Origin: Candidatus Harrisonbacteria bacterium RIFCSPHIGHO2_02_FULL_40_20
Lineage (GTDB): Bacteria; Patescibacteriota; Minisyncoccia; UBA6257; WO2-44-18
Assembly (NCBI GenBank): GCA_001818675.1
Contig: MHJF01000011.1
Coordinates: 1 to 44,596 of the forward strand
Length of the DNA: 44,596 nucleotides
Direction of reading: 5' to 3'
How positions within the stretch are numbered: position 1 is the first letter of the stretch; each line of letters opens with the position of its first letter. The notes beneath the pieces were generated by a model. The model saw nothing but the letters and a program-made list of their open reading frames with translations. It searched no databases and was not told the DNA's origin. Shown here piece by piece: positions 7,412 to 34,553 of this stretch. A program made the translations under genes and the position numbers.

Positions 7412-7627
7412 CTATTGTTTTATTGGAGAAAGATTTAATTGGACAAGCAAAAATTCGATGTCTTCAATAGCGTGAAGGTATAGTGCGGAGACGGCTTCAT
7501 TTTCTTCGGGATGAAAATCGAAATAATTGTTTTCATGTTCGCGATAGTTCCGGATCCGTTTTTGGATCGCCGCGATTCTAGCGCGCGTTTTTTTCGGCGA
7601 CTTCTGAATAAAGTCGGCTCGCAACAT
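7412..7627 (-). CDS. Small orphan protein (71 aa) with its own promoter and SD
   Basis: AGGAGG (7633-7638, minus strand) 5 nt before ATG 7627; consensus promoter upstream; terminator downstream. Confidence 0.6.
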   Translation of the reverse strand: MLRADFIQKSPKKTRARIAAIQKRIRNYREHENNYFDFHPEENEAVSALYLHAIEDIEFLLVQLNLSPIKQ

Positions 7628-7662
7628 AAACACCTCCTGAATTTGTTTAAGTACCGGTATCT

Positions 7663-7691
7663 ATTGTATATTTTATCTTAAGCTTTGTCAA
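7663..7691 (-). promoter_or_regulatory. Sigma70-type promoter TTGACA-17 nt-TACAAT
   Basis: The minus strand reads TTGACA aagcttaagataaaata TACAAT. Confidence 0.7.
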
Positions 7692-7694
7692 ATT

Positions 7695-8255
7695 ATGATT
7701 ATTATTCTTCATAATATTAGGAGCTTATATAATGTGGGTTCAATTTTTCGGACTGCCGATGCGGCGGGCCCTGTTAGAAATAGCCCACTCCAAAGGCCCT
7801 CCTGGCGCGCTAGCGCGGGCGTAATTTCTAACGGGGCGGGCATAGAGAAATTATATTTATGCGGAATTACTCCAACTCCGATAGATAGGTTTGGGAAATT
7901 GCGACCGCAACTTGGAAAAGTTTCTTTAGGCGCGGAAAAAAGTGTTGCCTGGGAATATTGCAAGTCCATAGCGGCCTTAATTAAAAAATTAAAAAATCCG
8001 TCAGTAGGCGGAGGTTATAAAATTCTGGCAGTTGAGCAGTCTAAAAAATCTATTCCTTATTATAAAGTGGCCCTTCGACAAGTTCAGGGCAAAAATAAGC
8101 TGGCGCTTATTTTTGGCAATGAAGTTCGCGGTTTGCCGCCGTCAGTTTTGAAATTAGCAGACAAGATTTTGGAAATTCCAATGAGGGGCAAAAAGGAATC
8201 ATTGAATGTGGGTGTAGCATTTGGGATAGTGGCATTTCGTTTGCTTTATCCATAA
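7695..8255 (+). CDS. TrmH/SpoU family RNA methyltransferase carrying three in-frame palindromic insertions
   Basis: 'HNIRSLYNVGSIFRTADAAG' and 'FGNEVRGL...EIPMRGKKESLNVGVA' SPOUT motifs. Confidence 0.9.
   Translation: MIIILHNIRSLYNVGSIFRTADAAGPVRNSPLQRPSWRASAGVISNGAGIEKLYLCGITPTPIDRFGKLRPQLGKVSLGAEKSVAWEYCKSIAALIKKLKNPSVGGGYKILAVEQSKKSIPYYKVALRQVQGKNKLALIFGNEVRGLPPSVLKLADKILEIPMRGKKESLNVGVAFGIVAFRLLYP
7770..7835. mobile_element. 66-bp MITE-like element (CCTGTTAGAAAT...ATTTCTAACGGG) with a 6-bp target duplication GCGGGC, in frame in TrmH
   Basis: 12-bp terminal inverted repeat (1 mismatch); GCGGGC at 7764-7769 and 7836-7841; removal restores ADAAGIEK. Confidence 0.8.
7997..8012. repeat. Short palindrome TCCGTCAGTAGGCGGA in frame in TrmH (PSVGG)
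   Basis: Near-identical to TCCGTCAGCTGGCGGA in prfA (21700-21715, minus strand). Confidence 0.65.
8070..8090. repeat. 21-bp repeat GCCCTTCGACAAGTTCAGGGC in frame in TrmH (ALRQVQG)
   Basis: 19/21 identical to 10688-10708; GCCCT/AGGGC terminal stem. Confidence 0.75.
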
Positions 8256-8320
8256 ATTCTTTTCAGAAAACAATTTATTTTCCTCAATTTAAAAGTAAAG
8301 ATTTGGTGTATAATTAAATA

Positions 8321-8776
8321 ATGAAAAGATTTTTTGTTGTTGTTGGGCTTTTTGTCATATTTTTGATTGTTTCTGTTTTGTTTGTATCAGTAAGAGAAAC
8401 AAAAGAAGGGTTAACGGTTAGTAAGGTTAAGATTGGTTTAGCGGCTTTTGATGTGGAGGTGGCAGATACCGCTTTTTTGCAGACTAAGGGGCTTTCGGGC
8501 CGAGAATCATTGCCTAAAAATTACGGCATGCTTTTTATTTTTGATGACTTACAGAAACGCAGTTTTTGGATGAAAGATGTCCAATTTCCATTGGATTTTG
8601 TTTGGATAAGAGATAACAAGGTTGTTGGCATGGTTTATGGGGCAGAACCGGAAGTAGGCGATAATTTAACTATCTATGAATCTCCGGAGCTGGTGGATAT
8701 GGTTTTGGAAGTGAATGCCGGAGAGCTCACTAATTATGGGATTAAGATAGGAGACGCCGTTATTATAAATTTTTAA
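8321..8776 (+). CDS. DUF192 domain protein with an N-terminal membrane anchor
   Basis: 'VEVADT...GLSGRESL...GMLFIF...FWMKDV.FPLD...VLEVNAG' family signature. Confidence 0.85.
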   Translation: MKRFFVVVGLFVIFLIVSVLFVSVRETKEGLTVSKVKIGLAAFDVEVADTAFLQTKGLSGRESLPKNYGMLFIFDDLQKRSFWMKDVQFPLDFVWIRDNKVVGMVYGAEPEVGDNLTIYESPELVDMVLEVNAGELTNYGIKIGDAVIINF

Positions 8777-8798
8777 TTATTAGTATAATAAAGTTATT

Positions 8799-9839
8799 AT
8801 GGCAAAAATAGCAATCAATGGTTTTGGGAGGATCGGCCGATTATTTTTTCGGCAGGCTTTTGGTAAAAAAGGTTTAGAGATAGCGGCGATTAATGATTTG
8901 GGCGACATTGAAAATCTGGCGTATCTATTAAAATATGATTCGGTTTATCGGACTTATGATAAAGAAGTGAAATTTAAGCGCGATGCGGGTGGCGTTGGCG
9001 GAGAGCTGATAGTGGATGGAAAGAGCATTAAAGTTATTCAGGAGAAAGAGTTGGGGAAATTGCCGTGGAAGGAGATGAAAATTGATGTGGCAATAGAAGC
9101 AACGGGCGCTTTTGAATCTTTTGAAAAATCAGCGCCGCATGTAATTTCGGCAGGAGCCAAGAGGGTGGTGATTTCCGCTCCGGCGAAAGACGCAGAGGGC
9201 GTGGCTGGCGGACGGACTATTCTTTTGGGAGTGAACGAAGATCAATTTAAAACCTGTAAAGTTTCCTCTAATGGTTCTTGCACCACTAATGCTACTGCTC
9301 CGGTGGCGGCTATTATGCACGAAGCCCTTGGCATTCAAAAAGCTTTCTTAGCCTCTACCCATGGTTATACCGCCACTCAAAATTTAGTGGATGGGCCGAC
9401 CAGAGGAAAAGATTTTCGCCGCGGGCGCGCGGCGGCAGTGAATATCGCTCCGTCTTTTACCGGAGCGGCAATTTCTGTTACTCGGGGTATTCCGGAATTA
9501 GCAGGAAAGTTTGATGGTATTGCTTTGCGCGTTCCGATTGTTACGGGTTCTTTGGCGGATTTTACTTTTTTAACTAAGAAAAGAACTTCGGTTGAGGAAG
9601 TGAATGAAATTTTTAAGAAAGCGGCAAAATCCGCGCGTTGGAAAGGAATTTTGGGAGTAACGGAAGATCAATTGGTTTCTTCCGATATCATTGGCATGGA
9701 TTACGCCGCGATGGTGGATCTTCAATATACGAAAGTTGTTGATGGCGATTTAGTAAAAGTTCTGGCTTGGTATGACAATGAGTGGAGTTATGTTACTACG
9801 CTTGTTCAGCACGTAATGAAAGCGGCGGAAAATTTGTGA
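8799..9839 (+). CDS. gap: Glyceraldehyde-3-phosphate dehydrogenase, type I
   Basis: AINGFGRIGR, SNGSCTTN catalytic Cys, WYDNEW. Confidence 0.97.
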   Translation: MAKIAINGFGRIGRLFFRQAFGKKGLEIAAINDLGDIENLAYLLKYDSVYRTYDKEVKFKRDAGGVGGELIVDGKSIKVIQEKELGKLPWKEMKIDVAIEATGAFESFEKSAPHVISAGAKRVVISAPAKDAEGVAGGRTILLGVNEDQFKTCKVSSNGSCTTNATAPVAAIMHEALGIQKAFLASTHGYTATQNLVDGPTRGKDFRRGRAAAVNIAPSFTGAAISVTRGIPELAGKFDGIALRVPIVTGSLADFTFLTKKRTSVEEVNEIFKKAAKSARWKGILGVTEDQLVSSDIIGMDYAAMVDLQYTKVVDGDLVKVLAWYDNEWSYVTTLVQHVMKAAENL

Positions 9840-9985
9840 AGCCGCACATTATTATTTATTATCTTACTCTTTTTGGAGTTGCGGCGGTGGTTGCGGCGAG
9901 TTTTATAAATTTGGGCAAGGCGTTAGAGAACCAGTATTTAGCCGTAGAGCAGGCAAGGCGATTGGAAATTGAGTCCTCTAGGTAG
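9836..9985 (+). CDS. Possible small membrane protein (49 aa)
   Basis: GTG overlaps the gap stop (GTGA); one hydrophobic helix. Confidence 0.35.
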   Translation: MKPHIIIYYLTLFGVAAVVAASFINLGKALENQYLAVEQARRLEIESSR

Positions 9986-9992
9986 TGTAAAC

Positions 9993-10025
9993 TTGACTTA
10001 AAGATTATCTTAAGATAATCTTTAA
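9993..10025 (+). promoter_or_regulatory. TA promoter with a perfect 28-bp palindromic operator
   Basis: TTGACT -35 at 9993; TTAAAGATTATCTT|AAGATAATCTTTAA at 9998-10025 covers the spacer and -10 just upstream of the antitoxin ATG. Confidence 0.75.
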
Positions 10026-10027
10026 TT

Positions 10028-10282
10028 ATGACTAAAATAGCTGGACTAAAAGAGTTGCGGGAAAATACCGAATCTTATATCAAATCCATTCAAAAGGGAG
10101 ATTCTTTTGTGATCGTTAGGCGATCTAAGCCTGTATTTAAAATAACCCCGATTAGCGAAGAAGACGAAATCTGGGAAGATGTTGTGGATTTTACGAAAAT
10201 CAAGAAAGGCGGCCTTCCGTTGAAGGAGGCGCTTGTTAAGGTTCATTCATGGACAAGTTCGAAAAAGCATTCAAAAAGTTAA
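10028..10282 (+). CDS. Phd/YefM-type antitoxin
   Basis: 'GLKELRENTESYI..IQKGDSFVIVRRSKPVFKI' Phd-like N-terminus, upstream of a RelE-like gene. Confidence 0.8.
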   Translation: MTKIAGLKELRENTESYIKSIQKGDSFVIVRRSKPVFKITPISEEDEIWEDVVDFTKIKKGGLPLKEALVKVHSWTSSKKHSKS

Positions 10283-10491
10283 TTGTTCAAGAACAGCGTC
10301 AGTTAAAAGAAATCCTAGCCCAGTTAGAAGCTGGGTTTTTTAAAAATCTGGATATTAAGAAATTGAAGGGAACGGAGGATATTTTTCGAGTCCGTAAAGG
10401 TAATTTGAGGATTATTTATCAAAAAAGAGATGGCGAAGTATTTTTACTTAAGTTGAGCCGCCGTTCGGAGAAAACTTATCGGAACTTGTGA
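10249..10491 (+). CDS. RelE/ParE-family toxin
   Basis: 'DIKKLKG...FRVRKGNLRIIY...RR...Y' RelE signature. Confidence 0.85.
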   Translation: MDKFEKAFKKLIVQEQRQLKEILAQLEAGFFKNLDIKKLKGTEDIFRVRKGNLRIIYQKRDGEVFLLKLSRRSEKTYRNL

Positions 10492-10506
10492 TACAATAAG
10501 CCCATA

Positions 10507-10974
10507 ATGATTATATATTTAGCCACAGACCATGCGGGGTTTGAATTAAAAGAAAAAGTTAAGGATTGGCTTGTTAAAAATGGTTATGAAGTTAAAGACT
10601 TCGGTTCTTTTCAGTTAGATGAAAAAGATGATTATCCGGATTTTGTGAAAAAGGCGGCGGAAGCTGTGAGTGAATGCGAAAAAGGTAGCCCTTCGACAGG
10701 CTCAGGGCAAAAATGCCGTGCCGTCATTTTTGGCGGAAGCGGGCAGGGCGAGGCAATGGTGGCTAATAGATATAAAGGAGTGCGAGCCGCGGTTGTGTAT
10801 AAATATGACGAAGACATTATTAAGCTTTCGCGGGAACATAATGATGCGAATATTTTATCTTTAGGCGCGCGGTTTATCAAAGAAAAAGACGCGTTAAAAG
10901 CAGTAAAGTTATGGTTAGAAACGCCATTTTCCGGAGATGAGAGGCATATTCGAAGAATTTTGAAGATAGATTAG
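10507..10974 (+). CDS. rpiB: Ribose-5-phosphate isomerase B
   Basis: ATDHAGFELKE, DYPD, GSGQGEAMVANR, SREHNDAN, RHIRR. Confidence 0.95.
   Translation: MIIYLATDHAGFELKEKVKDWLVKNGYEVKDFGSFQLDEKDDYPDFVKKAAEAVSECEKGSPSTGSGQKCRAVIFGGSGQGEAMVANRYKGVRAAVVYKYDEDIIKLSREHNDANILSLGARFIKEKDALKAVKLWLETPFSGDERHIRRILKID
10688..10708. repeat. 21-bp repeat GCCCTTCGACAGGCTCAGGGC in frame in RpiB (SPSTGSG)
   Basis: Second copy of the 8070-8090 repeat, read in a different frame. Confidence 0.75.
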
Positions 10975-11164
10975 AGTTTGCGGCTAAAACATAAATTTTT
11001 TAAGAAATTTATGTTTGCCCGAACAATCGTTCCTGATTGTTTTAGGGAGAATTGACAAATTTTAGTTTTTTATATAATATATATTTAGTTTTTTAAATCT
11101 GGCGAGTCGAGCTTCAGCTAGTGGCTGAAGTTAGGCGAGCCGCAAAATAAAGGAGGTGACCCAA

Positions 11165-11773
11165 ATGGGGAACCTAATCAAGGAGACGCCGTACTCTGAA
11201 ATTACGGCAACGCTGGAGGCGCTTCAGGCTTTGGGTGTGGAGCGGCGGCATTTTGAGGCAGTCAGAAAAGATCCAACGTTAGCTTCATCAGTGGCACAGG
11301 CGATTATCGCCGGATATATTTTGGCAGACCCGATAAAAGCGATTTTCCCCACCTCCGTAGACTACTCCAAGTCTCTAGCCCAGATGATCAAATCTTGTAA
11401 TTTAAATTGGGTTAACCCCAACATCACCGAAGCTCACTTTCCCAAAGGGAAAGCTGGAGGTAAAGCAGAGTTCAACCTCGAATTCTTTCACCCCAACAAA
11501 GTGATGTCTTCCGATCAAATCTTGATCGAGATGAAGAATCGAAAACTCCGACCTGCCGAGCTTCCAATGGGTCTCGCTTTTGCAGAAAAATACCCCGAAG
11601 AACAGAGAAAGGGTCCCATAGTGATTTTTGGTTCTATGTGGCGGGGCTGGCGTGCCCATCGGCTCGTTCCGTATCTTTACAGTATTTCCGGCAGGCGTTA
11701 TCTGCGTCTGTATTGGTTTGAGGATGGCTGGGATGTGGGCTATTGGTTTCTTGCAGTGCGCGAGCCTGCCTGA
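11165..11773 (+). CDS. Hypothetical protein with a DGR-target-like (C-type-lectin-fold) C-terminus
   Basis: AGGAGG 8 nt before ATG 11165; C-terminal 'VPYL...RYLRLYWFEDGWDVGYWFLAVR' pattern; TTGACA at 11052 and terminator at 11815. Confidence 0.6.
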   Translation: MGNLIKETPYSEITATLEALQALGVERRHFEAVRKDPTLASSVAQAIIAGYILADPIKAIFPTSVDYSKSLAQMIKSCNLNWVNPNITEAHFPKGKAGGKAEFNLEFFHPNKVMSSDQILIEMKNRKLRPAELPMGLAFAEKYPEEQRKGPIVIFGSMWRGWRAHRLVPYLYSISGRRYLRLYWFEDGWDVGYWFLAVREPA

Positions 11774-11784
11774 CGGTAGGCAGG
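11765..11784. repeat. 20-bp palindrome CCTGCCTGACGGTAGGCAGG supplying the stop codon of the preceding gene
   Basis: Variant of CCTGCCTGCCGGCAGGCAGG at 17140 and 25899. Confidence 0.75.
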
Positions 11785-11814
11785 GTCTAGTCCAGTGGAC
11801 TGTTGGAAAAGTTA

Positions 11815-11849
11815 AGCCCGCAAGATGAAGATCTTGCGGGCTGTTTTTT
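11815..11849 (+). terminator. Intrinsic terminator
   Basis: 12-bp perfect stem agcccgcaagat-GAAG-atcttgcgggct followed by a T run. Confidence 0.8.
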
Positions 11850-15750: not shown

Positions 15751-15860
15751 AGACAATTAAACTTTAATTATGTATTTAATGAATAAACAACTAGCGTTAG
15801 TCGACGTTAAGCAATCAAGATGCGGATGCGCTTTTTTAAGCGCATCCTGTCTCTAACGGG
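15743..15860. mobile_element. 118-bp MITE-like element (CCCGCTAGAGACA...TGTCTCTAACGGG) at the pfkB/next-gene junction
   Basis: 13-bp TIR with 1 mismatch; internal hairpin ggatgcgctt..aagcgcatcc; provides the pfkB TAG and abuts the next ATG. Confidence 0.75.
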
Positions 15861-17129
15861 ATGAATGGGTACGCAGAACATATCGCTAAAATTTTACGGA
15901 CTGATAAGCATGAGATAGAAAATTTAGAACGCGGATTAGAAAAAGCTACCGGTAAAGTCGGGCTTTTAAAAATGATTGTAGAAACTGATGAAGAATTGTT
16001 GAGCGATAGATTAAGCATTCTTGGTTTGTCGCGCTCATCCTCCGCGGTTGAGGTTTATGACGCTTTAATTAGTAAAATTGAGGCGGATGATTTGGCGCTT
16101 TTAAAATATATAGGATTAGAACGAAAAGATACTGCTGCCGCCGCTCAAAAAACCGTAGATTTTGTGAAGAGAATCCATCCGCCTTTTATGGGGTACTTTT
16201 TAAAAAAAGAAAAAGCGAAACAATTTTTGATTGCCGAACCGCCTAAGAGAGTTTTAGCGGCTTTGGGTTATAAGTATGTGGAGGAAATGCTGCAAAAAGA
16301 AGATTTATTGGAGGTTTACAGCGCTTTAAGATTTTTAGAGGGAGGCGAATGGCTGAATAATGTTTTTTTTAAACAGTATGAAACTTTGCACACGGATGAT
16401 TTTGAAGAACGGCAAATTGAAGTACGGGCCTTGCATCCCAAATGGGCGGCGGCAGCGGAAAAATTTGTCGCTAAAAAATATCATAACGTCAGTCATTTGA
16501 AAGAGCTGGGCGTGATTTTTGTCATTCCGGTTTTTTTGGGGATTTCGGGAGAGACTTTGCGGGTAGTCAGTTTGTTATTGCATTATCTCAACGAAGTTCA
16601 ATTTTATTCGGGGCTTTTTCAAGATTTTAGAAAAGACAATGTTTCTTTTTCGGACAAAGTGATTTCTTTATTAAGGGGCGACGTGATTGAGCATCGCCTT
16701 CCGGAACAGCTAATGGAGGCGGCGCGCCCCAGATTTTTAGTGATCCAGCGTTATCTGGCTAAGGATGATGAAAATGATTGGCGGCTGATTGAGCCACATA
16801 TAAATCCGGAAGCGATTCATTGGCAGAAAGCGGAAGATGAGATTGTTCGGGTTAATGAAAAAATTCTTGATTTTAAAAACGGATTGGAATTTTGGCGGGA
16901 CCTTGGTTCCGTTGGCGGATTTTTTAAGAGTGAAATTGGCAATGATATTCTAGTAAGCTTCAATCTGGTGGATACAGTAATGGCATTGGTAAAAAGAAAA
17001 GAATTAATCAAGTATCTTTATCATCATCAAGAGGCGATGTGGAATAAAATTTTTGCCTATTACTTTGGCATGGGAAAGCTAGAAGAGATGAGTCGGAAGC
17101 ATATTTTGAAGGGATGGTTTGAGGTATAA
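15861..17129 (+). CDS. Hypothetical protein (422 aa) inside the sugar-phosphate cluster
   Basis: Long ORF with host-like codon usage between pfkB and fba; His/Glu motifs (YHNVSHLKELG, LHYLNEV, EPHINPEAIHW); no family recognised. Confidence 0.85.
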   Translation: MNGYAEHIAKILRTDKHEIENLERGLEKATGKVGLLKMIVETDEELLSDRLSILGLSRSSSAVEVYDALISKIEADDLALLKYIGLERKDTAAAAQKTVDFVKRIHPPFMGYFLKKEKAKQFLIAEPPKRVLAALGYKYVEEMLQKEDLLEVYSALRFLEGGEWLNNVFFKQYETLHTDDFEERQIEVRALHPKWAAAAEKFVAKKYHNVSHLKELGVIFVIPVFLGISGETLRVVSLLLHYLNEVQFYSGLFQDFRKDNVSFSDKVISLLRGDVIEHRLPEQLMEAARPRFLVIQRYLAKDDENDWRLIEPHINPEAIHWQKAEDEIVRVNEKILDFKNGLEFWRDLGSVGGFFKSEIGNDILVSFNLVDTVMALVKRKELIKYLYHHQEAMWNKIFAYYFGMGKLEEMSRKHILKGWFEV

Positions 17130-20160: not shown

Positions 20161-20226
20161 ATTTTTCTAGATAATTTTTGTATTATAATAAGCGGTTCAT
20201 TTATTTTTAAAAAAGGGAGGCGGAAG

Positions 20227-20475
20227 ATGGCAAAGATTATTGAAGAGGGTTATCACGGCAAAGAGCCGCTAGTTTATTGGTGGATTGGACGGCGCTGTTC
20301 TTGCGAATGTCGTTGTATTTTTGAACTAGAAAAAAAGGATGAATTGGTTAAAATTCCTAGAAATAATGTTAAGGTTGGCCTTTTTATTTTTGAAGCAAAA
20401 TGTCCTAAGTGTGGTCGGTCTGTTGAGGTTTGGTTTGATTTTGACGACTCGAAAAACTTGAAAGGAATGAGCTAA
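20227..20475 (+). CDS. Small Cys-rich (zinc-ribbon-like) orphan protein
   Basis: CSCECRC...CPKCG; GGGAGG 6 nt before the ATG. Confidence 0.65.
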   Translation: MAKIIEEGYHGKEPLVYWWIGRRCSCECRCIFELEKKDELVKIPRNNVKVGLFIFEAKCPKCGRSVEVWFDFDDSKNLKGMS

Positions 20476-21159: not shown

Positions 21160-21909
21160 TTACTTATTAATTTTCTTTAAAAGAATATCCAGATCGCCGT
21201 CTAAGATTTTTTCTATGCCGTGAACTTTAACGTTAAATCGGTGGTCGGTAATGCGGTCATCCGGAAAGTTATAGGTACGGATTTTTTCCGAGCGATCGCC
21301 GGAACCAATTTGCTGCCGGCGTTCGGCAGTAAGCTGTCCCAGCTGTTCAGCGCGCTGGAGCTCGTATATTTTGGCGCGGAGAATAGACATCGCCGCTTCT
21401 TTATTGGCGCTTTGTGAGCGTTCGGCTCGGGAAAATACCGAGATGCCAGTGGGTTTATGGACAATTCGTACCGCGGTTTCCACTTTGTTGACGTTTTGAC
21501 CGCCCGGGCCGCCGCCGCGTTGGAAAGTGATTTCTAAATCGCCTTGGTTGATTTGGAGTTCTTTATCTTCAACTTCTGGCAGTATTGCGACAGTGGCAGT
21601 GGAGGTGTGCACTCTGCCGGCTTTTTCGGTTTTTGGCACTCTTTGAATTCGGTGAACGCCAGATTCGTTTTTCAAGGCATCATAGACATTTTGTCCTGAT
21701 CCGCCAGCTGACGGAGAAGAATTACCCATAATTTTCCCAATAAAAGTTTTATATCCGCCGATAGTGCCTTGACTAGAATCAACAGTAGAAAAACCCCAGC
21801 CTTTATTGGCGGAATATCGTTGGTACATCCTTACTAGATCGCCGGCAAAAATAGCGGCTTCATCGCCACCAGTACCAGCGCGAATCTCAATAATAATTTT
21901 ATTAGTCAT
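21160..21909 (-). CDS. prfA: Peptide chain release factor 1, lacking N-terminal domain 1
   Basis: [25 protein letters not shown] (PxT RF1 motif), [19 protein letters not shown]; downstream of rpmE. Confidence 0.9.
21700..21715. repeat. Palindrome TCCGTCAGCTGGCGGA (minus strand) in frame in RF1 (SSPSAGGSG)
   Basis: Same family as 7997-8012. Confidence 0.7.
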
Positions 21910-21913: not shown

Positions 21914-21995
21914 TTTAGCGACTAGTCATTAGCCATTAGTGATTAGTATAACTCTCTATGAAAATAAATAACTAGTGGCTAACCACTAGTTATTT
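21914..21995. repeat. TAGCGAC/TAGTGGC heptamer tract and hairpin between rpmE and prfA
   Basis: tagcgac tagtcat tagccat tagtgat tag ... taactagtgg ctaa ccactagtta. Confidence 0.7.
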
Positions 21996-22254: not shown

Positions 22255-22394
22255 AATTTTCAATCATAGCATTAAAAGTTTCTAAAAGGCAAATTTAAGA
22301 CTTGATATTGGCTCTTGACTTATTTTCAGCATTCTTTTTATAATATTATTTGGTAGATTAGTTTGAAAATTCTATAACCCCAAAGGAGGGCTAT

Positions 22395-22970
22395 ATGAAG
22401 AAGATGTCGATGGCTGCGGTTGGACTATTAGCTGGCGTGATGATGACGGGTTGTAGCGTGTTAGATACGAAGTCTGTTAAGCCGGGTCTTTTTGGTGATG
22501 ATGCGGTAAAGATGATGGCGGCATTTGACACCCTAGAGGCGGGCAAGACCACCAATGAGCAGTGGATGACCACTGGGTTTGATCTTTCTAAAGCGAAGAA
22601 TTTTACTGTTTCTCCGGGACCGATGGCGTTGAGGAAAATCCTTGGTGAAGAGGTTTTCCAGTCTACTTATGGATGGTATTCGGCTAAGGGTAAGGTTGAT
22701 GAGCTTTTGGCTGACCTTGCTCCCTATAGCATGGTTGAGATTCCCTTTAAGGTTACAACTAAAAAGGAGAGCCGTTTCTATATTTCTACCAAGTATGAGT
22801 TTACCGAGGGTGATGGAACTGTTTTAACTTTTGTGTTTAAAAATGGCGTTCTGGTTTATAAAGCTCCGTCTCCGCAGAAGTTTAGCGAAGATCATAGTAA
22901 TAGCGCGTTTGCGCAGGGACTTTTTCCTTGGTTGAAGATTGTCAAGGACGTTAAAGGCGTAGTTGAGTGA
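22395..22970 (+). CDS. Putative lipoprotein of unknown function
   Basis: Lipobox MTGC; AGGAGG SD; TTGACT-18-TATAAT promoter; paralog of 23117..23782. Confidence 0.75.
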   Translation: MKKMSMAAVGLLAGVMMTGCSVLDTKSVKPGLFGDDAVKMMAAFDTLEAGKTTNEQWMTTGFDLSKAKNFTVSPGPMALRKILGEEVFQSTYGWYSAKGKVDELLADLAPYSMVEIPFKVTTKKESRFYISTKYEFTEGDGTVLTFVFKNGVLVYKAPSPQKFSEDHSNSAFAQGLFPWLKIVKDVKGVVE

Positions 22971-23018: not shown

Positions 23019-23116
23019 TTATATTATTAATCGTGTTATTGACGCCTGAGATTTTTTCGCTTATTGTTATTTCTAGATAATTAGTTCTTTTATTTCTGTG
23101 AAAAAGGAGGTAGAGG

Positions 23117-23782
23117 ATGAAAGTTATAAGCAGATTGGTTGGGTTATCGCTGTTTTTATTGATACCGATTGGTTGCGTGTCTCGAGATTTTAAAAGCGTG
23201 AAAACGGGAATTTTAAATGACGACCCTAACGCATTATTGGCGGTTGGTTCCAAGATTGAATTAGGCGTGACAAGCAGGGCAGATTTGGAAGCGCAGGGTT
23301 TTAATTTTTCGGCGCCTAACGTTCAGTTTATCAAAGGCAAGGACGCGTTCCGATATTTATTGTCAAAGAAATTTTTTAAAACAGTTCGATTTTTAGGCGG
23401 AGTGTTAGTGGAAAAACCGATTGATGGCGTTTTGGAATCTTTGGAAAATTATCAGCTTTATTTGATTCTCAATAAAGAGGTTTTAAAAGTAAAAGATAAA
23501 ATTTATCTTTCTACCAAAAATGAATGGCTGGAAATGAATGAGCTCCTTTTTATTCTTATGTTTAAAGACGACAAGGTTGTTTATTATGGCTGGGGACAGA
23601 GCCGTGTGAATCGGTTGGCAACTCAGTATAGCTTTCTTGGTGGAATTTTGAGGTTCAGTTTGGCGGATCCCGATGAGACGTTTGATGAGTTAACGGACCC
23701 CAATCGTAAAGATGAGGATGGTCTGGGGCTAGGTTCGCTTTTCAAGAAGTCAGACGAAAAAGATGAAAAAGATAAGGATTAA
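23117..23782 (+). CDS. Putative lipoprotein, paralog of the upstream gene
   Basis: Lipobox-like PIGC; AGGAGGT SD; shared motifs KSVKxG, YxSTKxE, FKxxxxVY. Confidence 0.75.
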   Translation: MKVISRLVGLSLFLLIPIGCVSRDFKSVKTGILNDDPNALLAVGSKIELGVTSRADLEAQGFNFSAPNVQFIKGKDAFRYLLSKKFFKTVRFLGGVLVEKPIDGVLESLENYQLYLILNKEVLKVKDKIYLSTKNEWLEMNELLFILMFKDDKVVYYGWGQSRVNRLATQYSFLGGILRFSLADPDETFDELTDPNRKDEDGLGLGSLFKKSDEKDEKDKD

Positions 23783-23788
23783 AATTAC

Positions 23789-23822
23789 CCCCCTTGACCA
23801 ATCGGTCAAGGGGGCTTATAAT
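23789..23822 (+). promoter_or_regulatory. Likely 16S rRNA promoter (TTGACC-17-TATAAT) overlapping a hairpin
   Basis: -35 at 23794-23799 lies inside cccccttgacc-aatc-ggtcaaggggg; TATAAT at 23817-23822. Confidence 0.7.
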
Positions 23823-24094: not shown

Positions 24095-24153
24095 GGCGAC
24101 TAGTGACTAGCGACTAGAATTTCTAGTGGCTAAACCCTAGTGGCTAGTGGCTA
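24095..24153. repeat. Heptamer tract hairpin immediately 5' of the 16S rRNA
   Basis: ggcgac tagtgac tagcgac tag...c tagtggc taaaccc tagtggc tagtggc. Confidence 0.75.
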
Positions 24154-24157: not shown

Positions 24158-25763
<1,606 letters not shown>

Positions 25764-25860
25764 TTAATATCGATAATTTATAAATTTATTTTATGAATTT
25801 GGAAAAAGGTTTTGGCCGAGGAGCCTTAAGTCTCGGTTCGGTTGCCTAAAGCAACTGTAG

Positions 25861-27031: not shown

Positions 27032-27052
27032 CTTTCGTTGTATAATTAAGTT

Positions 27053-28771
27053 ATGCTTCAGATCCCTAATGAAAAATTAAAGGATTTTTTAGTGGGCCGG
27101 GGAACGGTTACCGCGGAGGATTTTGATTTAGCTATTCAAGAGGCGGAGAGGCAGGGGCAAGCGCTTTCTAATATATTAATTACTCGTAATTTAATAGCGC
27201 TGGATGATTTTAATAAATTATTGGCTGATTATTTTGGGGTGGAGTTAGCGGATTTAGCCAAACGAAAAATTGATGAAGAAATTTTGCGTTTATTGCCGGA
27301 AGAGTTGGCTAGGCAAAAGCGGGCTATTGTTTTTAGTCGAGAGGCTGACGGCAGTTTAAATGTGGCGATGGAAGATCCTAGTGATCTTCCGACGATTGAA
27401 TTTCTTTCGCGATACTTAAACGCCCAGCTGCGTTTATTTTTAGCCTCGAGCGAGGATCTAAATCGGGGCTTTGTTTATTACGGGCGGAAGTTGGCTTATG
27501 ATTTTAAGAAAATTATTGAAGAAAATATTCAGGCGACTTTAAAGAGTCGGGCTTACGGAAAAGAAGAAAAAGAAGCGGCTTTGGAGCTACCCATCGTTTC
27601 CATTGTTGATAATCTTTTATCTTATGCTATGGCTAGCCGGGCGTCGGATATTCATATTGAAATCTTGGATGAGGAAATTTTAGTGCGTTTTAGAATTGAT
27701 GGCGTACTCCATGAAATCGTCAGAATTCCTAAAGAAGTCCATGCTTCTATTACGGCGCGTCTGAAGCTTCTATCGGGCTTGAAGCTGGATGAACATGGCA
27801 AGCCGCAAGACGGCCGTTTTCGTTATAAAATGTCTGGCGATCTTATGGATGTTCGGGTAGCGGTGATGCCCACTTATTATGGAGAAAAAGTTGAAATGCG
27901 TTTATTGTCCGCGGCTCAGCGCGCCCCTTCTTTAGATGAATTAGGATTTTTGGCGGATCACAAAGAAATAATTTTAAGAAACATTAAAAAAACTTACGGG
28001 ATGGTTTTGGTATGCGGCCCTACTGGCGCTGGTAAAACCACCACCTTATACGCGCTGATTAATATTTTAAATAGGCCTGAGGTTAATATTGCTACCATTG
28101 AAGATCCAATTGAATACGATATTAAATATATCAATCAAACTCAGATTAATCCTCAAGCCGGAGTTACTTTTGCGGATGGATTAAGGGCGTTGCTCCGGCA
28201 AGACCCGAATATTATTTTGGTCGGAGAAATTAGAGATGGAGAAACTGCTGATGTTGCTGTGCAGGCCGCGTTGACCGGCCATTTAGTAATTTCCAGCTTG
28301 CACACCAATGACGCTCCTACGGCTGTGCCGCGGCTGGTAGATATGAAAATACCACCATTTTTAGTGGCGGCGGTGTTAAACGCGATTTCTTCGCAAAGAT
28401 TGGTAAGAAAGTTATGTCAGGATTGTAAGAAAGAATATAAACCGGACGCAGCATTAGTAGGAAATATTAGGGAAAAATTTAAAGAAATTGGGTTGGATGA
28501 AATAAAATTTAAAGCCCCCCGGATTTTATATGGGCCGCAGGGCTGTGATTCTTGCAATCATAGCGGTTATAAAGGAAGATTAGGTATTTTTGAAGTTATT
28601 GATGTTACCGATGATGTGAGGCGAGCCATCGTGAAGCCGGATTTTACTTTAGATTATTTAAAAGAAGTAATCCGCAAGCAGGGTGTTATGACTATGTTTG
28701 AAGATGGCCTAAGAAAGGTTGAGGGAGGGTTAACCAGCTTAGAAGAGGTGTTGAGAGTGCTTGGAGAATAA
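27053..28771 (+). CDS. pilB: Type IV pilus assembly ATPase PilB/GspE
   Basis: ASDIHIE, RFRIDG, GPTGAGKTTT, TIEDPIEY, LRQDPN, TGHLV, CxxC...CxxC. Confidence 0.95.
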   Translation: MLQIPNEKLKDFLVGRGTVTAEDFDLAIQEAERQGQALSNILITRNLIALDDFNKLLADYFGVELADLAKRKIDEEILRLLPEELARQKRAIVFSREADGSLNVAMEDPSDLPTIEFLSRYLNAQLRLFLASSEDLNRGFVYYGRKLAYDFKKIIEENIQATLKSRAYGKEEKEAALELPIVSIVDNLLSYAMASRASDIHIEILDEEILVRFRIDGVLHEIVRIPKEVHASITARLKLLSGLKLDEHGKPQDGRFRYKMSGDLMDVRVAVMPTYYGEKVEMRLLSAAQRAPSLDELGFLADHKEIILRNIKKTYGMVLVCGPTGAGKTTTLYALINILNRPEVNIATIEDPIEYDIKYINQTQINPQAGVTFADGLRALLRQDPNIILVGEIRDGETADVAVQAALTGHLVISSLHTNDAPTAVPRLVDMKIPPFLVAAVLNAISSQRLVRKLCQDCKKEYKPDAALVGNIREKFKEIGLDEIKFKAPRILYGPQGCDSCNHSGYKGRLGIFEVIDVTDDVRRAIVKPDFTLDYLKEVIRKQGVMTMFEDGLRKVEGGLTSLEEVLRVLGE

Positions 28772-29997: not shown

Positions 29998-30012
29998 GAG
30001 TAATCGCGAATA

Positions 30013-30495
30013 ATGCTAATGACAGCAAATAATGCTAATAAATTTAATCGAGGGCTGACTTTAATTGAGATTTTGATTTCTATAGCGATTATTGCCCTTT
30101 TGGGCACCACGGTTTTATTGAGTTTTTCAGGATATCGGCAGCGCCAGGTTTTAGAATCATCGGCGCGGTCTTTGGCAGCTACCTTGCGAGATGCTAATAA
30201 GAAGGCTGTTAATCAGGATCAGGGCAAGGAGTGGGGCGTGCATTTTGAGCGGGCAATCAGCGGTCGCGATTTTTACGCTGTTTTTAATGGGCCGGTTTAT
30301 TTAACCCCGGTTCAACTTGTTTATTTGCCTCCCACTTTACGCTTTATTGATCCAGCTAGCGGATTCAAAGAAATAATTTTTGAAAAATTAACCGGATTGC
30401 CTTCTTTGGCCACCAATATTGTTGTTGCCTTAACTAGCAATGTTGCGATTTTCCAAACGATTATTGTTGATGGGGTGGGGAAAATACAATACTAA
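30013..30495 (+). CDS. Prepilin-type minor pilin
   Basis: NRG|LTLIEILISIAII motif. Confidence 0.85.
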   Translation: MLMTANNANKFNRGLTLIEILISIAIIALLGTTVLLSFSGYRQRQVLESSARSLAATLRDANKKAVNQDQGKEWGVHFERAISGRDFYAVFNGPVYLTPVQLVYLPPTLRFIDPASGFKEIIFEKLTGLPSLATNIVVALTSNVAIFQTIIVDGVGKIQY

Positions 30496-30502
30496 ATTTA
30501 AA

Positions 30503-31318: not shown

Positions 31319-31893
31319 GAAAAATAATTTTTGATCGATCTAAACTAACACCTTCGAAGAAACGCGGTTCTCCGACTCCAGCGGTCGGAGCCCGCTCAGT
31401 CCTCGGCGCAATTTTGCGACCAAGCAAATTGCGCCTCCGGATGCTCTTCTCAGGAATTAGTTTAGATCAAAAGATGGGTTGGAGAAGGGGTGTCTCTTCT
31501 TTGCCCCTAATTTTAATTTTGGGCGGCTTGATTACTACTATGGCCTTGGGTGCAACGCTTTTAGTCTTTCTAGTCAATAATGCTAATCTAGGAGAGAGGG
31601 CTTCGGCCGAAGCTTTGGCAATCGCCCGTTCTGGCATTGACGACGGTATTTTGCAGGTTTTACGCAATAAAAATTGTCCAGATGCTTCCTGCTTGGCTTC
31701 TTATGAAGTGAGTTTAGATAATCGAACAGCCGCAGTGACTATTTGTAAAGATTTTTGCGATGGCATAGGCAAGCACACCATCATTTCTATTGCCCAAGTT
31801 TTGACTAACCACAAAAAGATCAAAGCAATTTTAGAGACGGATCCGATAACGGGGGAAGTCTTAATTGAATCAATTGCCGATATGCCTCTTTAA
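31315..31893 (+). CDS. PilX-like minor pilin with a 44-aa repeat-derived insertion in its leader
   Basis: RRG|VSSLPLILIL; 'SAEALAIARSGIDDG' PilX-like helix. Confidence 0.7.
   Translation: MRKIIFDRSKLTPSKKRGSPTPAVGARSVLGAILRPSKLRLRMLFSGISLDQKMGWRRGVSSLPLILILGGLITTMALGATLLVFLVNNANLGERASAEALAIARSGIDDGILQVLRNKNCPDASCLASYEVSLDNRTAAVTICKDFCDGIGKHTIISIAQVLTNHKKIKAILETDPITGEVLIESIADMPL
31337..31468. mobile_element. 132-bp MITE-like element with GATCTAAACTAA/TTAGTTTAGATC ends, in frame
   Basis: 12-bp perfect TIR, extra GATC at 31333-31336, two internal hairpins; removal gives MRKIIFDQKMGWRRG. Confidence 0.75.
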
Positions 31894-31896
31894 GTT

Positions 31897-33390
31897 ATGA
31901 AAGGTAAGTCTATTTTTAAAAAAATTGTTAAATTTTTAAATCCTATTCCGGATATCGGCGGTCTTGAAATTAGCGATACTGCAATTCGGTTTATTGATTT
32001 GACTCATGGAAAGATTTTGCGGGCGGCGGTTAATTTATCTCCTGGAGTTATAACGGGGGGAGAAGTTAAAAATCGTTCGGCTTTGGTGGCGGCTTTAAAA
32101 AATTTACGGCGAGATTTAGGCATCCCGGAGAAAAGCATATTGAACGTAATTGTCACGGCGGCTTCCCCGCGAATTTATACGCAAATTTTTAGCGTGCCTC
32201 TTGGTATTCGGGATTCCAATTTAAATGAGGCTATTAAGTTGAATTTAGAAATGATCTCTCCTTTTGATATTCGGGAGGCTTATTATGACGCCCAGCCTTT
32301 GAAAGAAACGCCGTCGGGACAGGCCAGTTTTCTAGGAGCTTTTGCCAGCGCGCCCTTAGTGGATCAGTTTGTCGCCGCGCTGGAAGAAGCGGATTCTAAT
32401 GTTATTGCTTTCGAGTTTCCAGCTTTTTCTTTAGGCCGTTTGATTAAACAATTGAGCGAAGTAGATTTTTTTGGCTCCCATATTTTAACGGATGTTTCCG
32501 CGGAAGGTTTGCATTTTTTGATCTTAGTAAAAGGGGAACTCTATTTTAGTCATTTCTTGTCTTGGCGAGAAGTGCAATCTTCTCGGCCGAGCATTGCTTT
32601 AGAGGATATGATGGACGTAGTCATTAGAGAAATAAAACGGCTGGTGAGTTTTTATAATAATCGCATTAATAGGCCGTTAGACACCATTGTGTTGTCTTCT
32701 CCTAAGCCGATTCCAGAATTAGAATCTATGATTAGGAATAATTTTCCTTTGAAGTTGCAAATACCTTCTTTGGATGCTTTCCCTGAGCTTTCTTCTGCTT
32801 GGTTCCCCGCTTTGGGAGCGGCTTTGCGCGCTTTAGTTCCTAGATCAGAAGATACTTTCATTAGCTTAATGGCGGTAGGCACCGAGGAGCGATATTTTCA
32901 AAACCGGGCCGTGCATTTTATCAGTTCTTGGCGGAATATAGGTGTCGCGGTTTTTGGATTTTTGTTGGTAGTTTTTTGGGGAATGAATATGGTTTTGGCG
33001 CAGTCGGAAAAGTCGGCCGCTAAAGAGCTATCGAACAATTTATCCAAGCCGGATTTTCAGGAAGTTGATCAACTGCAGAAACAGGCGCAGGAATTTAATC
33101 GATTAGTTGCTTCGGCTTTATTTTTAAAGAGCGCGATTAGCCCACTTTCTCCATTAATGAATAGATTAAATATTTTAAGCGGTCAGAGCGTTTCTTTGGA
33201 AAGAGTCTATTTAGACCCCAATAAAAAAATTACCATTAATGGCAAGACAGCCAGCGAAGCGGAGGCAATTAATTTTAAAAATAGGCTTTTGAAAGATTCT
33301 AATTTAGATAAGGTTGTTCTGCCTCTTTCTTCTTTTCAGCCGGGCCCCAATAACACGGTATTATTTAGCGTTAATTTTGAATGGAAATAA
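31897..33390 (+). CDS. PilM-PilN-like fusion protein
   Basis: GLEISDTAIR PilM-like start, ...PALGAALR, then a TM helix, coiled coil and 'ITINGKTASEAEAINF...L' PilN-like C-terminus. Confidence 0.65.
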   Translation: MKGKSIFKKIVKFLNPIPDIGGLEISDTAIRFIDLTHGKILRAAVNLSPGVITGGEVKNRSALVAALKNLRRDLGIPEKSILNVIVTAASPRIYTQIFSVPLGIRDSNLNEAIKLNLEMISPFDIREAYYDAQPLKETPSGQASFLGAFASAPLVDQFVAALEEADSNVIAFEFPAFSLGRLIKQLSEVDFFGSHILTDVSAEGLHFLILVKGELYFSHFLSWREVQSSRPSIALEDMMDVVIREIKRLVSFYNNRINRPLDTIVLSSPKPIPELESMIRNNFPLKLQIPSLDAFPELSSAWFPALGAALRALVPRSEDTFISLMAVGTEERYFQNRAVHFISSWRNIGVAVFGFLLVVFWGMNMVLAQSEKSAAKELSNNLSKPDFQEVDQLQKQAQEFNRLVASALFLKSAISPLSPLMNRLNILSGQSVSLERVYLDPNKKITINGKTASEAEAINFKNRLLKDSNLDKVVLPLSSFQPGPNNTVLFSVNFEWK

Positions 33391-33617
33391 TTATTCAAAC
33401 ATTAGGCTGGATTGGCGCGGCGCTTATCGTTGTCGCTTATTTTTTAGTATCTCGCCAGTATTTATCCAGCCAGAGCAGGATTTATCAATTTTTTAATTTA
33501 TTGGGCGCTATGGGTGTGGGCGTCAATGTTTTTTATCAAGAGGCTTGGCCCGCGGTAGCTTTACAGATTGTTTGGGGCGTTATAGCGATTGTTTCTCTTA
33601 TACGGCCAAAGAATTAA
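33381..33617 (+). CDS. Small three-helix membrane protein (CBU_0592-like)
   Basis: LGWIGAALIVVAYFL...YQFFNLLGA...WP...QIVW pattern. Confidence 0.7.
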   Translation: MEIIIQTLGWIGAALIVVAYFLVSRQYLSSQSRIYQFFNLLGAMGVGVNVFYQEAWPAVALQIVWGVIAIVSLIRPKN

Positions 33618-33622
33618 AAGTA

Positions 33623-33663
33623 AAACCCCTCCTTTTACACTTTCGTGTGAAAAGGAGGGGTTT
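33623..33663 (-). terminator. Inverted copy of the 22978-23018 hairpin
   Basis: 37/41 identical on the minus strand; the four differences are compensatory. Confidence 0.8.
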
Positions 33664-33668
33664 ATTGA

Positions 33669-33920
33669 TTATTTAAAGGGCGGTTTCTTTTTAAGGAGGG
33701 TTTCTTGCAGAATTTTATAAATATGAGGATGTTGGTTGCGCAAATGATCTACGGCTACAAGAGTGATTCTTTCCGCGGTTTTGAAATCACCATTATCTAG
33801 AAAAAGGATGATGTTTTGGATGATTGGACTCTCATCGTCACTGCTTCCTTTTAATAGGTCTTCTAGTTTATTAGCTAATTCAATCATTTGACCGCGGGCA
33901 GTGCGGGTGTGGAAATTCAT
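33669..33920 (-). CDS. Small orphan protein (83 aa)
   Basis: AAGGAG 6 nt before the ATG; terminator downstream. Confidence 0.6.
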   Translation of the reverse strand: MNFHTRTARGQMIELANKLEDLLKGSSDDESPIIQNIILFLDNGDFKTAERITLVAVDHLRNQHPHIYKILQETLLKKKPPFK

Positions 33921-34077
33921 TTACCACTCCTTTTCATATAAAATGAGCAGATTGAATCTTATAATAACAAAGAATATTTAATTTTGCCAGGTAGTAGAAA
34001 CTTGACAAACTATCAATAATAATATATTTTATTGATTGGTACTTTCAGAACGTAGTTTTAGTTCAAGGAGGTGGCTA

Positions 34078-34356
34078 ATGCCCGAGTGTTTGAATGCTTA
34101 TATCTTTACTCGCCGTCTTGGGCTAATGGATGGCCATGGGCCGGTAATTGTTGCGGCTAGAGATTTAGCTGATGCGGAACAATATTATCGTGATGCTGTT
34201 CGCGAAAAACATAAGGCTTTGTTAAAGGAATGCGGCCAGGAACAAAATTTTTCTCGTCAGGGCGCAGATTCCCTGGCGGAAGAAGATTTGCGTCTTATGG
34301 AAGTCAAAGAAGTTCCGATTGTTTCAGGAGCCTTCCTTCTTAATGAAGGAATGTAA
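34078..34356 (+). CDS. Small orphan protein (92 aa)
   Basis: AGGAGGT before ATG 34078; TTGACA at 34002. Confidence 0.6.
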   Translation: MPECLNAYIFTRRLGLMDGHGPVIVAARDLADAEQYYRDAVREKHKALLKECGQEQNFSRQGADSLAEEDLRLMEVKEVPIVSGAFLLNEGM

Positions 34357-34370
34357 GAAAGGAGAATAGA

Positions 34371-34520
34371 ATGTTAACCTTCGTTGTTTTTTCCGGTTTT
34401 CTCTTTTTGGTCTTTGCATTATGTGACATACACACCGAACTTAAAAAAATCGTCGCTATTTTAAGTATTTTTGATTTACGGACAGAAAAAATAGAGAAGG
34501 ATAAACAAAAAGAGGATTAA
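34371..34520 (+). CDS. Unannotated 49-aa membrane peptide (MLTFVVFSGFLFLVFALCDIHTELKKI...)
   Basis: AAAGGAG at 34358-34364, open frame to TAA 34520, hairpin at 34531-34553. Confidence 0.5.
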   Translation: MLTFVVFSGFLFLVFALCDIHTELKKIVAILSIFDLRTEKIEKDKQKED

Positions 34521-34553
34521 GAGTAAATTGAAATCCGGCACTAAGCCGGATTT

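Follow-up and report, generated by a model that had tools for sequence, protein, structure and literature searches.

Genes of the contig and their start signals

The 44,596-nucleotide (nt) stretch of DNA analyzed here (the window), from Candidatus Harrisonbacteria bacterium RIFCSPHIGHO2_02_FULL_40_20 (GTDB lineage Bacteria; Patescibacteriota; Minisyncoccia; UBA6257; WO2-44-18; contig MHJF01000011.1 of assembly GCA_001818675.1), carries a 16S rRNA gene without the anti-Shine-Dalgarno (anti-SD) sequence together with a series of genes led by canonical Shine-Dalgarno (SD) sites, and it is this combination, and what it may mean for translation initiation, that concerns us. The window is the whole of contig C11 in a 667,488-base assembly of 35 contigs with 40% G+C (G000, the source genome), estimated to be ~96% complete with 0.5% contamination. 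It was compared with three near-complete relatives, G003, G005 and G022 (4, 6 and 3 contigs, respectively), and with further members of its family, order and class. Genes were called with a home-made procedure that combines dicodon scores with a greedy choice and gave 623 genes and 84% coding sequence in G000; promoters, leaderless status and RNA structure are throughout predicted from sequence.

All eight SD sites that a preliminary description had reported in the window are present (Table 1), and the five TTGAC-type promoters that it had placed before some of them were all found, with 9/12 to 11/12 matches. Its view of the SD-led genes as orphans also stood: none of the seven SD-led window proteins searched (the 49-amino acid (aa) open reading frame (ORF) being left out) has a Pfam family, and among 30 metagenome homologs of the 11165 protein none has any precomputed Pfam domain, and the only one with a name is called a hypothetical protein. 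For the housekeeping genes, which had been said to lack SD sites, the binding energies to the canonical anti-SD are correspondingly weak in gap (8799, -0.4), pilB (27053, -0.2), hisS (35823, -1.1) and ftsZ (39995, -3.4). The syntenic ortholog of the 22395 gene in G003 has a weak AGGAG only.

Table 1. Features of the window (SD sites as found in the SD check; dG, predicted binding free energy to the canonical anti-SD; promoter scores are consensus matches out of 12)
Feature	Coordinates	Strand	SD site	Start	Details
SD-led orphan unit	7412-7691	-	caGGAGGtgtttATG	ATG 7627	promoter 7691-7663 TTGACA-17-TACAAT (11/12); AGGAGGTG at 7631-7638; 71-aa ORF, end 7412
Repeated two-hairpin leader, window copy	10976-11063	+			model R1, 58.6 bits, E 2e-15; GGCUAAA-hairpin-UCGCCCGA-hairpin-UUUAGGGAG
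SD-led orphan unit	11052-11773	+	aaaGGAGGtgacccaaATG	ATG 11165	promoter 11052-11080 TTGACA-17-TAATAT (10/12); GGAGG 11152-11156; 202-aa protein
SD-led orphan	20215-20475	+	aaGGGAGGcggaagATG	ATG 20227	GGGAGG 20215-20220; 82 aa; dG -11.9
SD-led putative lipoprotein unit	22315-22970	+	aaaGGAGGgctatATG	ATG 22395	promoter 22315-22344 TTGACT-18-TATAAT (11/12); GGAGG 22385-22389; 191 aa
SD-led putative lipoprotein unit	23039-23814	+	aaaGGAGGtagaggATG	ATG 23117	promoter 23039-23067 (9/12); AAGGAGGT at 23104-23111; 221 aa; hairpin 23789-23814
16S rRNA gene	24158-25764	+			Rfam SSU_rRNA_bacteria RF00177, 1408 bits, model positions 1-1533 (full model)
16S 3' tail GGAUUAUUUACAUU	25751-25764	+			consensus GGAUCACCUCCUUU; UUUAC (25757-25761) replaces CCUCC
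Extended -10 box TGTATAAT of pilB	27039-27055	+		ATG 27053	tgtataat, 6 nt before ATG; context cgttgtataattaagttATG
SD-led orphan	33669-33932	-	aaaGGAGtggtaaATG	ATG 33920	AAGGAG 33927-33932; 83 aa
SD-led orphan unit	34002-34356	+	caaGGAGGtggctaATG	ATG 34078	promoter 34002-34030 (10/12); AGGAGGTG at 34066-34073; 92 aa; dG -15.9
SD-led small ORF	34360-34554	+	aaaGGAGaatagaATG	ATG 34371	AGGAG 34360-34364; hydrophobic 49 aa; terminator-like hairpin 34530-34554

The 16S rRNA tail

Alignment of the 3' end of the window 16S rRNA to the Rfam consensus shows an intact helix 45 followed by a tail in which the anti-SD is replaced (Table 1), as had been described, with coordinates one base off; CCTCC does not occur anywhere in the entire window 16S. 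This is the only 16S copy in the G000 assembly and it is unlinked to the 23S gene, which lies on contig C31. Each of the near-complete relatives G003, G005 and G022 likewise has a single 16S match, as does G115, an anti-SD-less genome of the class in a single contig, and the second 16S copy envisaged in the preliminary description thus finds no counterpart in these assemblies. Nor does the other caveat raised there, an assembly error at the 3' end, hold up: among 41 genomes of the same family and order we recovered the 16S 3' end in 19, eight of them from the same family, and CCUCC is absent from the tail in all 19, so that every family member with a recovered 16S end is without the anti-SD. 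The usual tails among these relatives of the order are GGAUCAAUUAAACU, GGAUCAUUUAAACU and GGAACAAUUAAACU. At the level of the class, the canonical tail (CACCUCCUUUC, CACCTCC) is found in 11 of 25 recovered 16S ends and non-canonical ones in 14 of 25. From the small genome, the single 16S unlinked to 23S, the rRNA insertions, the proportion of canonical tails in the class and the lack of a match to uL1 (PF00687) in G000, when all 14 of 14 control genomes gave one, we infer that the organism is of the Parcubacteria type within the candidate phyla radiation (CPR).

Some class relatives have degenerate tails such as CACUUCUUAUC, UAUCUCUUUUC and CAUUUCUUUUU (L151 in G139, L170 in G128 and L166 in G135, respectively), which look like intermediate stages of anti-SD decay; CUUCU might still wobble-pair with GGAGG. 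The rRNA genes also carry insertions. Relative to the Rfam model, the window 16S has 111 extra nt near model position 188 (~24353-24464) and a second, smaller insertion near model positions 76-84, while the 23S fragment (C31:11581-13583) holds an additional ~1.1 kb that lies between model positions 2048 and 2912. The repeat TAGTGGCTA occurs in the window at 24124-24146, right before the 16S gene, at 24417-24439, inside the 16S insertion, and at 21973 and 29795; two copies lie within the 111-nt insertion itself. Tandem copies are found before the 16S 5' end and also, elsewhere, before genes whose N-terminal sequences resemble a translation GTPase (EF-G-like), MetRS and bS6, and the related words GGCTAA/CTAGT precede a prfA-like gene at 21909 on the minus strand.

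A canonical Shine-Dalgarno signal across the genome

We define a strong SD as a site with dG <= -8 kcal/mol against the canonical anti-SD. By this threshold 72 of the 597 first starts in G000 (12.1%) have a strong SD, as against 14/597 at control positions -58 to -42 and 26/597 inside genes, and the proportions are comparable in G003 (120/793, 15.1%) and G005 (25/200, 12.5%), where control positions give 2-5%. SD 4-mers form a sharp peak at -12 to -9, with 32, 47, 50 and 32 of 597 genes at the successive positions and ~5 per position elsewhere. The enrichment of 6-mers was counted at -22 to -3 before the first in-frame start of all genes, with no SD-guided choice of start, and is thus non-circular. 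In G000 the most enriched words are AGGAGG (33 vs 1.7 expected), AAGGAG (33 vs 1.7) and TATAAT (67 vs 11.9), and in G003 they are AGGAGG (46 vs 2.2), GGAGGT (45 vs 2.2) and GAGGTG (34 vs 2.2), the last of which lengthens the SD match to canonical CACCUCC. At a distance of 4-7 nt upstream of the start, exact GGAGG was counted 49 times in G000 and 74 times in G003, compared with ~0.5 per position further upstream.

The SD consensus, AAGGAGGUG, is a 9-nt full complement of the canonical 16S tail, a result that is partly circular and to that extent counts for less in what follows, the SD class having been chosen by its energy against the canonical anti-SD. Its core is near-invariant (G in 96-100% at four positions, A in 86-92% at the middle one), and the spacing to the start is 4-7 nt in 91 of 105 SD-led genes in G000 and 168 of 180 in G003. 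Of the two halves of the canonical SD:anti-SD system, the genome hence retains one: a GGAGG-type motif 4-9 nt before the start is enriched, and the 16S tail is without CCUCC.

General SD use in the class has not left the motif behind as a residue: in five sampled class members that do bear an anti-SD, no more than 0-9% of starts have a strong SD (10/172 in G107, 14/152 in G162, 1/47 in G140, 4/58 in G099 and 0/21 in G129); two anti-SD-less class members outside the family gave 12/150 and 8/204, all of these class-level samples being small (37-200 kb each). We take the motif to act in translation initiation. The organism's own 16S tail is unable to pair with GGAGG and cannot be what reads these sites; something else probably does. 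The explanation toward which we lean, with modest confidence, is that selection maintains the SD as a start signal acting at the RNA level, on mRNAs with leaders, and that some partner distinct from the 16S tail reads it.

Start types and the architecture of SD-led units

A second start signal emerged from the same upstream regions. In 116 of 597 genes in G000 and 164 of 793 in G003, a TATAAT-like hexamer begins at -15 to -12, and the resulting pile-up has a sharp edge at -12; at -12 to -7, such a -10 box stops 6-7 nt before the A of the ATG. It is near-exclusive with the SD, the two overlapping in no gene of G000 and two of G003. Judging from this placement, the ~20% of genes with a -10 box abutting the ATG should yield leaderless mRNAs; besides pilB (Table 1), gap (8799) is an example from the window. 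Among genes with neither SD nor -10 box, 43% begin within 20 nt of the preceding gene on the same strand.

SD-led genes, by comparison, stand apart. The upstream gap exceeds 60 nt in 81% of them in G000 and 70% in G003, and among those with such a gap a sigma-70-type promoter match of at least 10/12 is seen in 34% and 30%, as opposed to 11% and 19% of the genes without SD or -10 box by the same criterion; the -10 box of SD-led genes ends a median of 57 nt (G000) and 38 nt (G003) before the start. As these genes head their own units with gaps and promoters, their characterization in the preliminary description as stand-alone cassettes with a promoter and a real leader is right, and it extends genome-wide. 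The two translation grammars proposed there need to be amended: different start signals do coexist in a genome without an anti-SD, and to those already named must be added the leaderless class and at least two repeated structured leaders. Functionally, SD-led genes are marked only by small size and, in G000, a few lipoboxes, with no enrichment of signal peptides or membrane proteins among them. On the practical side, gene callers tuned to one model of the ribosome-binding site will mis-start genes in such genomes.

Repeated structured leaders

The word GTTTTGATTTAGGGAGG recurs upstream of many unrelated SD-led genes. The repeated leader has a layout in which GGCUAAA is followed by a variable hairpin, UCGCCCGA, a second hairpin and UUUAGGGAGG, with an optional 30-nt insert that adds two small hairpins. 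A covariance model finds ~26 copies in G000 and matches in 16 of 61 sampled genomes of the order (G000 included). In an alignment of 32 copies, drawn from G000 and from eight related genomes, pairing extends to 98.6% of cells, a figure favored by the fitting of the alignment to the model. Both partners vary in 12 of the 21 pairs; the observed value was never attained in 500 shuffles, and slid controls give 28-51%. Searches with 18 copies recovered no Rfam family at E <= 1. Most copies have an ATG 4-9 nt downstream of GGGAGG, the genes behind it being unrelated to each other; the window copy precedes a promoter and not directly an ATG. Under a strict pattern this leader precedes 10 of the 107 SD-led genes of G000 and 8 of the 183 of G003. 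Situated in the 5' untranslated region, in gene orientation and with a structure backed by covariation, it has the properties of a cis-regulatory leader. The downstream genes are diverse and fall into no single pathway; as read from their sequences they putatively encode, among others, glutamate dehydrogenase, thiolase, deoxyribose-phosphate aldolase, fructose-bisphosphate aldolase/phosphatase, an acyl-CoA dehydrogenase-like protein, a NUDIX protein and phosphoribosyltransferases. In the predicted fold the first two G of GGGAGG pair with the CC of the junction, and this pairing may act as a gate on the SD signal.

This leader bears on three other ways of accounting for the motif. First, GGAGG could be a DNA-level signal, that is part of a promoter (e.g. 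a -10-like element recognized by an alternative sigma factor, whose transcripts would be leaderless) or a regulator site. It does occupy approximately -11 to -6, roughly the place of the leaderless TATAAT box. However, SD-led genes own good full sigma-70 promoters 30-80 nt further upstream, and the covarying RNA structure runs straight into GGGAGG, which accordingly must be transcribed; we regard this account as very unlikely. Second, the purine tract might aid initiation without pairing or a specific reader, by keeping the structure open or serving as a generic landing pad. Other bacteria are known to initiate without pairing of the SD, and the predicted GG-CC pairing in the leader means that accessibility could be what matters. 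Nevertheless, such a generic effect would not need the exact word, and the core is near-invariant, the spacing is held at 4-7 nt and the GUG extension is enriched, for which reasons we find it rather unlikely. Third, the cassettes had been suggested to be meant for a host or partner cell with SD-reading ribosomes. All that speaks for this proposal, for which we found no supporting evidence, is that the SD sites do not match the 16S of the organism itself; the SD-led and leader-driven genes include putative cytoplasmic enzymes, have native promoters and are not linked to transfer machinery, and the idea strikes us as scarcely credible. A start signal that is read on the mRNA by a specific partner within the cell remains the account that we prefer.

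The leader is pseudo-symmetric (CUAAA-hairpin-UCG CC CGA-hairpin-UUUAG), with GGGAGG and the ATG on the sense strand only, and owing to this pseudo-symmetry the reverse strand also scores with the model. We considered whether it might be the attC site of an integron and dropped this reading, as the copies are scattered on both strands, form no arrays and have a core unlike the attC consensus. A weak copy lies antisense inside the extra sequence of the 23S gene (C31:12944-13014).

Further repeated elements were noticed in front of genes. A second leader consists of a variable hairpin and CUGUCUCUAACGGG, with the ATG directly abutting (CTCTAACGGGATG), and its core has 20 exact copies genome-wide. 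In the window it occupies 15791-15860, before the gene at 15861 (422 aa), and ~38270-38340, before that at 38341 (137 aa); elsewhere it precedes a gene with a putative rplB-like N-terminus. G003 has two exact copies and 13 near-copies, and three copies gave no Rfam match. Another conserved 5' region, with AGAGCTTATATGAAAGGAGGTGGCAG-ATG, is common to several genes and is seen in G000 at C6:85947-86205, C25:7590-7673 and C13:~3350 and in G003 at C2:293419-293690 and C3:166775-167044; it is a third type of leader, or else the genes are paralogs whose leader is conserved. Yet another multi-copy repeat, containing ggaacatcccGGAGGcacgccggctgg, occurs in G003 at C2:180827, 209575, 269474 and 296250 and at C3:53367, 96053 and 122946.

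Selection or import of the SD sites

The preliminary description took the SD-led cassettes to be written for a different ribosome, possibly as recent imports. As relics of import, the genes would have come from SD-using bacteria or phages and the motif would be a decaying, functionless passenger. Several observations weigh on this side and against our explanation. SD-led genes have a reciprocal best hit in G003 in 50 of 111 cases as opposed to 363 of 511 others (odds ratio (OR) 0.33, p 4e-7), which places them preferentially among poorly conserved genes; they are slightly GC-richer (0.410 vs 0.396 in G000, 0.494 vs 0.470 in G003) and more often shorter than 100 aa; and those of the window are the orphans described above. 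A leader-driven gene for an amino-acid-kinase-like protein ('pyrH-like') occurs in just 2 of 81 genomes of the order, a patchiness on account of which we rejected it as a core-gene test. Furthermore, 9 of 16 syntenic orthologs of SD-led genes are without a strong SD in G003, which implies high turnover.

The retention of the motif nevertheless tells against a passive passenger. Among reciprocal best hits between G000 and G003, a strong SD is present in the G003 member for 21 and absent for 29 of the SD-led genes, compared with 27 and 336 for the remainder (OR 9, p 2e-9). Restricting the comparison to syntenic, well-aligned pairs, the corresponding counts are 7 and 9 against 10 and 213 (OR 16.6, p 2e-5), such that the SD is kept in 7/16 (44%) over a baseline of 10/223 (4.5%). 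The core proteins of the two genomes are ~57% identical and the bases flanking the motif differ, and since a neutral word of 5-9 nt should not survive divergence of this order, the SD looks selected. A gene for a 349-aa protein specific to the family (14 of 20 family genomes, 0 of 40 others) has a strong SD in 11 of its 14 orthologs, spanning eight genera and with diverged flanks, and weaker SD-like cores in the other three; one ortholog has the repeated structured leader instead. Similarly, an EamA-like gene (6 of 20 family genomes, 0 of 40 others) has a strong SD in 3 of 7 orthologs and weaker cores in 4 of 7. These orthologs belong to relatives that are themselves without the anti-SD, and the notion of recent imports written for another ribosome is not sustained by them. 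In addition, the codon-usage fit of SD-led genes is no different from that of others (p 0.06 and 0.5), the native repeated leader carries GGGAGG at a fixed spacing, and anti-SD-bearing members of the class use the SD less, not more. Taken together, the SD sites look selected and not like leftovers of imported genes, and we hold the import account to be unlikely.

The search for a reader

If the SD is a selected signal, the most conservative reader would be a hidden canonical anti-SD, in the form of a CCUCC-bearing RNA that was missed: a second rRNA operon, a 3' fragment encoded separately or a trans-acting small RNA. The 9-nt match to AAGGAGGUG and the canonical spacing would be most simply explained by canonical pairing, rRNA operons often assemble poorly, and with metagenome-type assemblies a missed second rRNA operon is conceivable. 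In opposition to this stand the single rrs in G000 and the one match each in G003, G005, G022 and the single-contig G115. No CCTCC lies within 1.5 kb downstream of the window 16S; over the same distance it is absent in 14 of 20 loci, and in the other six it has no 16S-like context. The longer form GGAT[CT]ACCTCC occurs in three places only (one each in G003, G005 and G115), none of them adjoining a 16S gene. A relocated anti-SD was rejected, given that there is no CCTCC in the 16S or in a suitable downstream context. The 155 intergenic blocks conserved between G000 and G003, of which few were examined, appear by length to be tRNA-like pieces and missed-gene-like stretches, in addition to rRNA and leaders, and two longer CCTCC-bearing ones matched no Rfam family, one giving a sub-threshold chance match. 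We judge a hidden canonical anti-SD to be quite improbable.

Other candidate readers were also considered. A new SD complementary to the organism's own tail was rejected: pairing to that tail is not enriched upstream of genes, no enriched 5-mers match its complement, and the duplex energies between leader motifs and the tail are weak. The sites of CACCTCCT and ACCTCCTT in G000, all of which we listed, are mostly reverse complements of SD sites. A search of three genomes for an adaptor RNA combining CCUCC with a complement of the tail gave nothing consistent, and among the blocks conserved between G000 and G003 we found no non-coding one suited to reading the SD. CsrA, as a potential reader of GGA, was rejected in that it was not found. 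An S1-domain protein and bS21 are both present in G000.

That our searches of rrs copies, downstream regions, adaptors, non-coding blocks and CsrA returned no reader tells against a selected signal read by another partner, as do certain properties of the data: the genes and their starts come from a simple, non-validated caller, apart from G000 and G003 each genome is represented by a partial sample (37-213 kb), and relatives are not independent samples.

The evidence above would fit the following scheme. The genome, from a family of Parcubacteria type whose ribosomes are without an anti-SD, would start translation in several ways. About one-fifth of its genes have a -10 box 6-7 nt before the ATG and should produce leaderless mRNAs; many others are packed in operons without any start signal, and some stand behind the repeated structured leaders. 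A further ~12-18%, mostly stand-alone lineage-specific units, have a predicted sigma-70-type promoter, a leader of 30-80 nt and the SD AAGGAGGUG 4-7 nt before the start. Their reader would be another sequence-specific partner at the same spot of the small subunit, for which our leading guess is a platform protein or an initiation factor and our second a separate RNA. More tentatively, and with confidence falling somewhat short of even, we propose that the whole family reads a canonical SD without a 16S anti-SD, recognition having passed to a ribosomal or initiation protein or to a trans RNA, a molecule that would position the mRNA at an unchanged distance from the P site, with the multi-copy leader gating the signal.

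Relation to known systems and significance

In Bacteroidetes most genes are without an SD, the anti-SD is present and is masked or occluded by bS21, bS18 and bS6, and initiation proceeds via other mRNA features. The genomes studied here resemble them in that most genes have no SD, and differ in that the anti-SD is absent instead of masked and yet the SD is commoner. Leaderless initiation, with a -10 box directly before the ATG, is familiar from Actinobacteria, Deinococcus and archaea; the TATAAT-like pile-up with its sharp edge at -12 is the likeness to these systems, known in our case from the sequence signature alone.

Loss of the anti-SD is in itself already published: it is reported that the motif is present in 48% of Parcubacteria and that the lineages lacking it overlap with a group lacking uL1, SD helices being thought not to form in the anti-SD-less lineages (Tsurumaki et al., 2022; RNA 28:1041, PMC9297842). 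Our genome agrees with what is available of that account in having no anti-SD after helix 45, no detectable uL1 and a small CPR-type genome, and the 11/25 of the class is close to the 48% given there. It departs from that account, the accessible part of which does not analyze mRNA leaders, in that the canonical SD is enriched and conserved in such a lineage. A further survey (PMC10783764), again to the extent of its accessible part, recognizes a category iv of SD-scarce organisms lacking CCUCC (among them the CPR members Campbellbacteria, Wolfebacteria, SR1 and Peribacter, with 2-7% SD), in which the loss is lineage-typical. In contrast, 12-15% of genes carry the canonical motif here; as the SD percentage in that survey denotes pairing with the organism's own tail, a retained canonical motif would go unnoticed in it. 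The same source, so far as available, describes an SD-abundant class without conserved CCUCC, made up of single-base variants that still pair. The family shares with this class the occurrence of SD-type sites beside a non-canonical 16S core, but that core is of an A/U type at all five positions (UUUAC here; AUUAA or UUUAA in relatives) with which no pairing is possible. Finally, the survey of Amin et al. (2018; PMC6107228), in its accessible portion, finds organisms without a perfect anti-SD to be generally without recognizable SDs, and to this rule the present family is an exception. In the literature we found no account of anti-SD-less Parcubacteria that retain SD sites or show leaderless signatures, while noting that supplementary tables may hold relevant data.

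The SD:anti-SD duplex is the textbook mode of start-site selection in bacteria, and in the order studied here the anti-SD has been lost throughout, while one family within it keeps both the exact word and its distance from the start. Either the ribosomes read the SD via another partner or the SD serves a function besides pairing with rRNA, and both possibilities bear on what the SD is for; the former, if true, would mean that the oldest known translation signal can be read in a second way, one that does not involve the 16S. The anti-SD-bearing relatives in the class that use the SD less furnish a natural contrast, making this a question that can be tested in a defined set of genomes.

Other genes of the window

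Apart from these elements, the window has adjoining small ORFs at 10028-10491 that resemble a Phd/YefM antitoxin (27.6 bits against a cut-off of 29.8) and a ParE toxin (22 bits against a cut-off of 23), both matches being sub-threshold.

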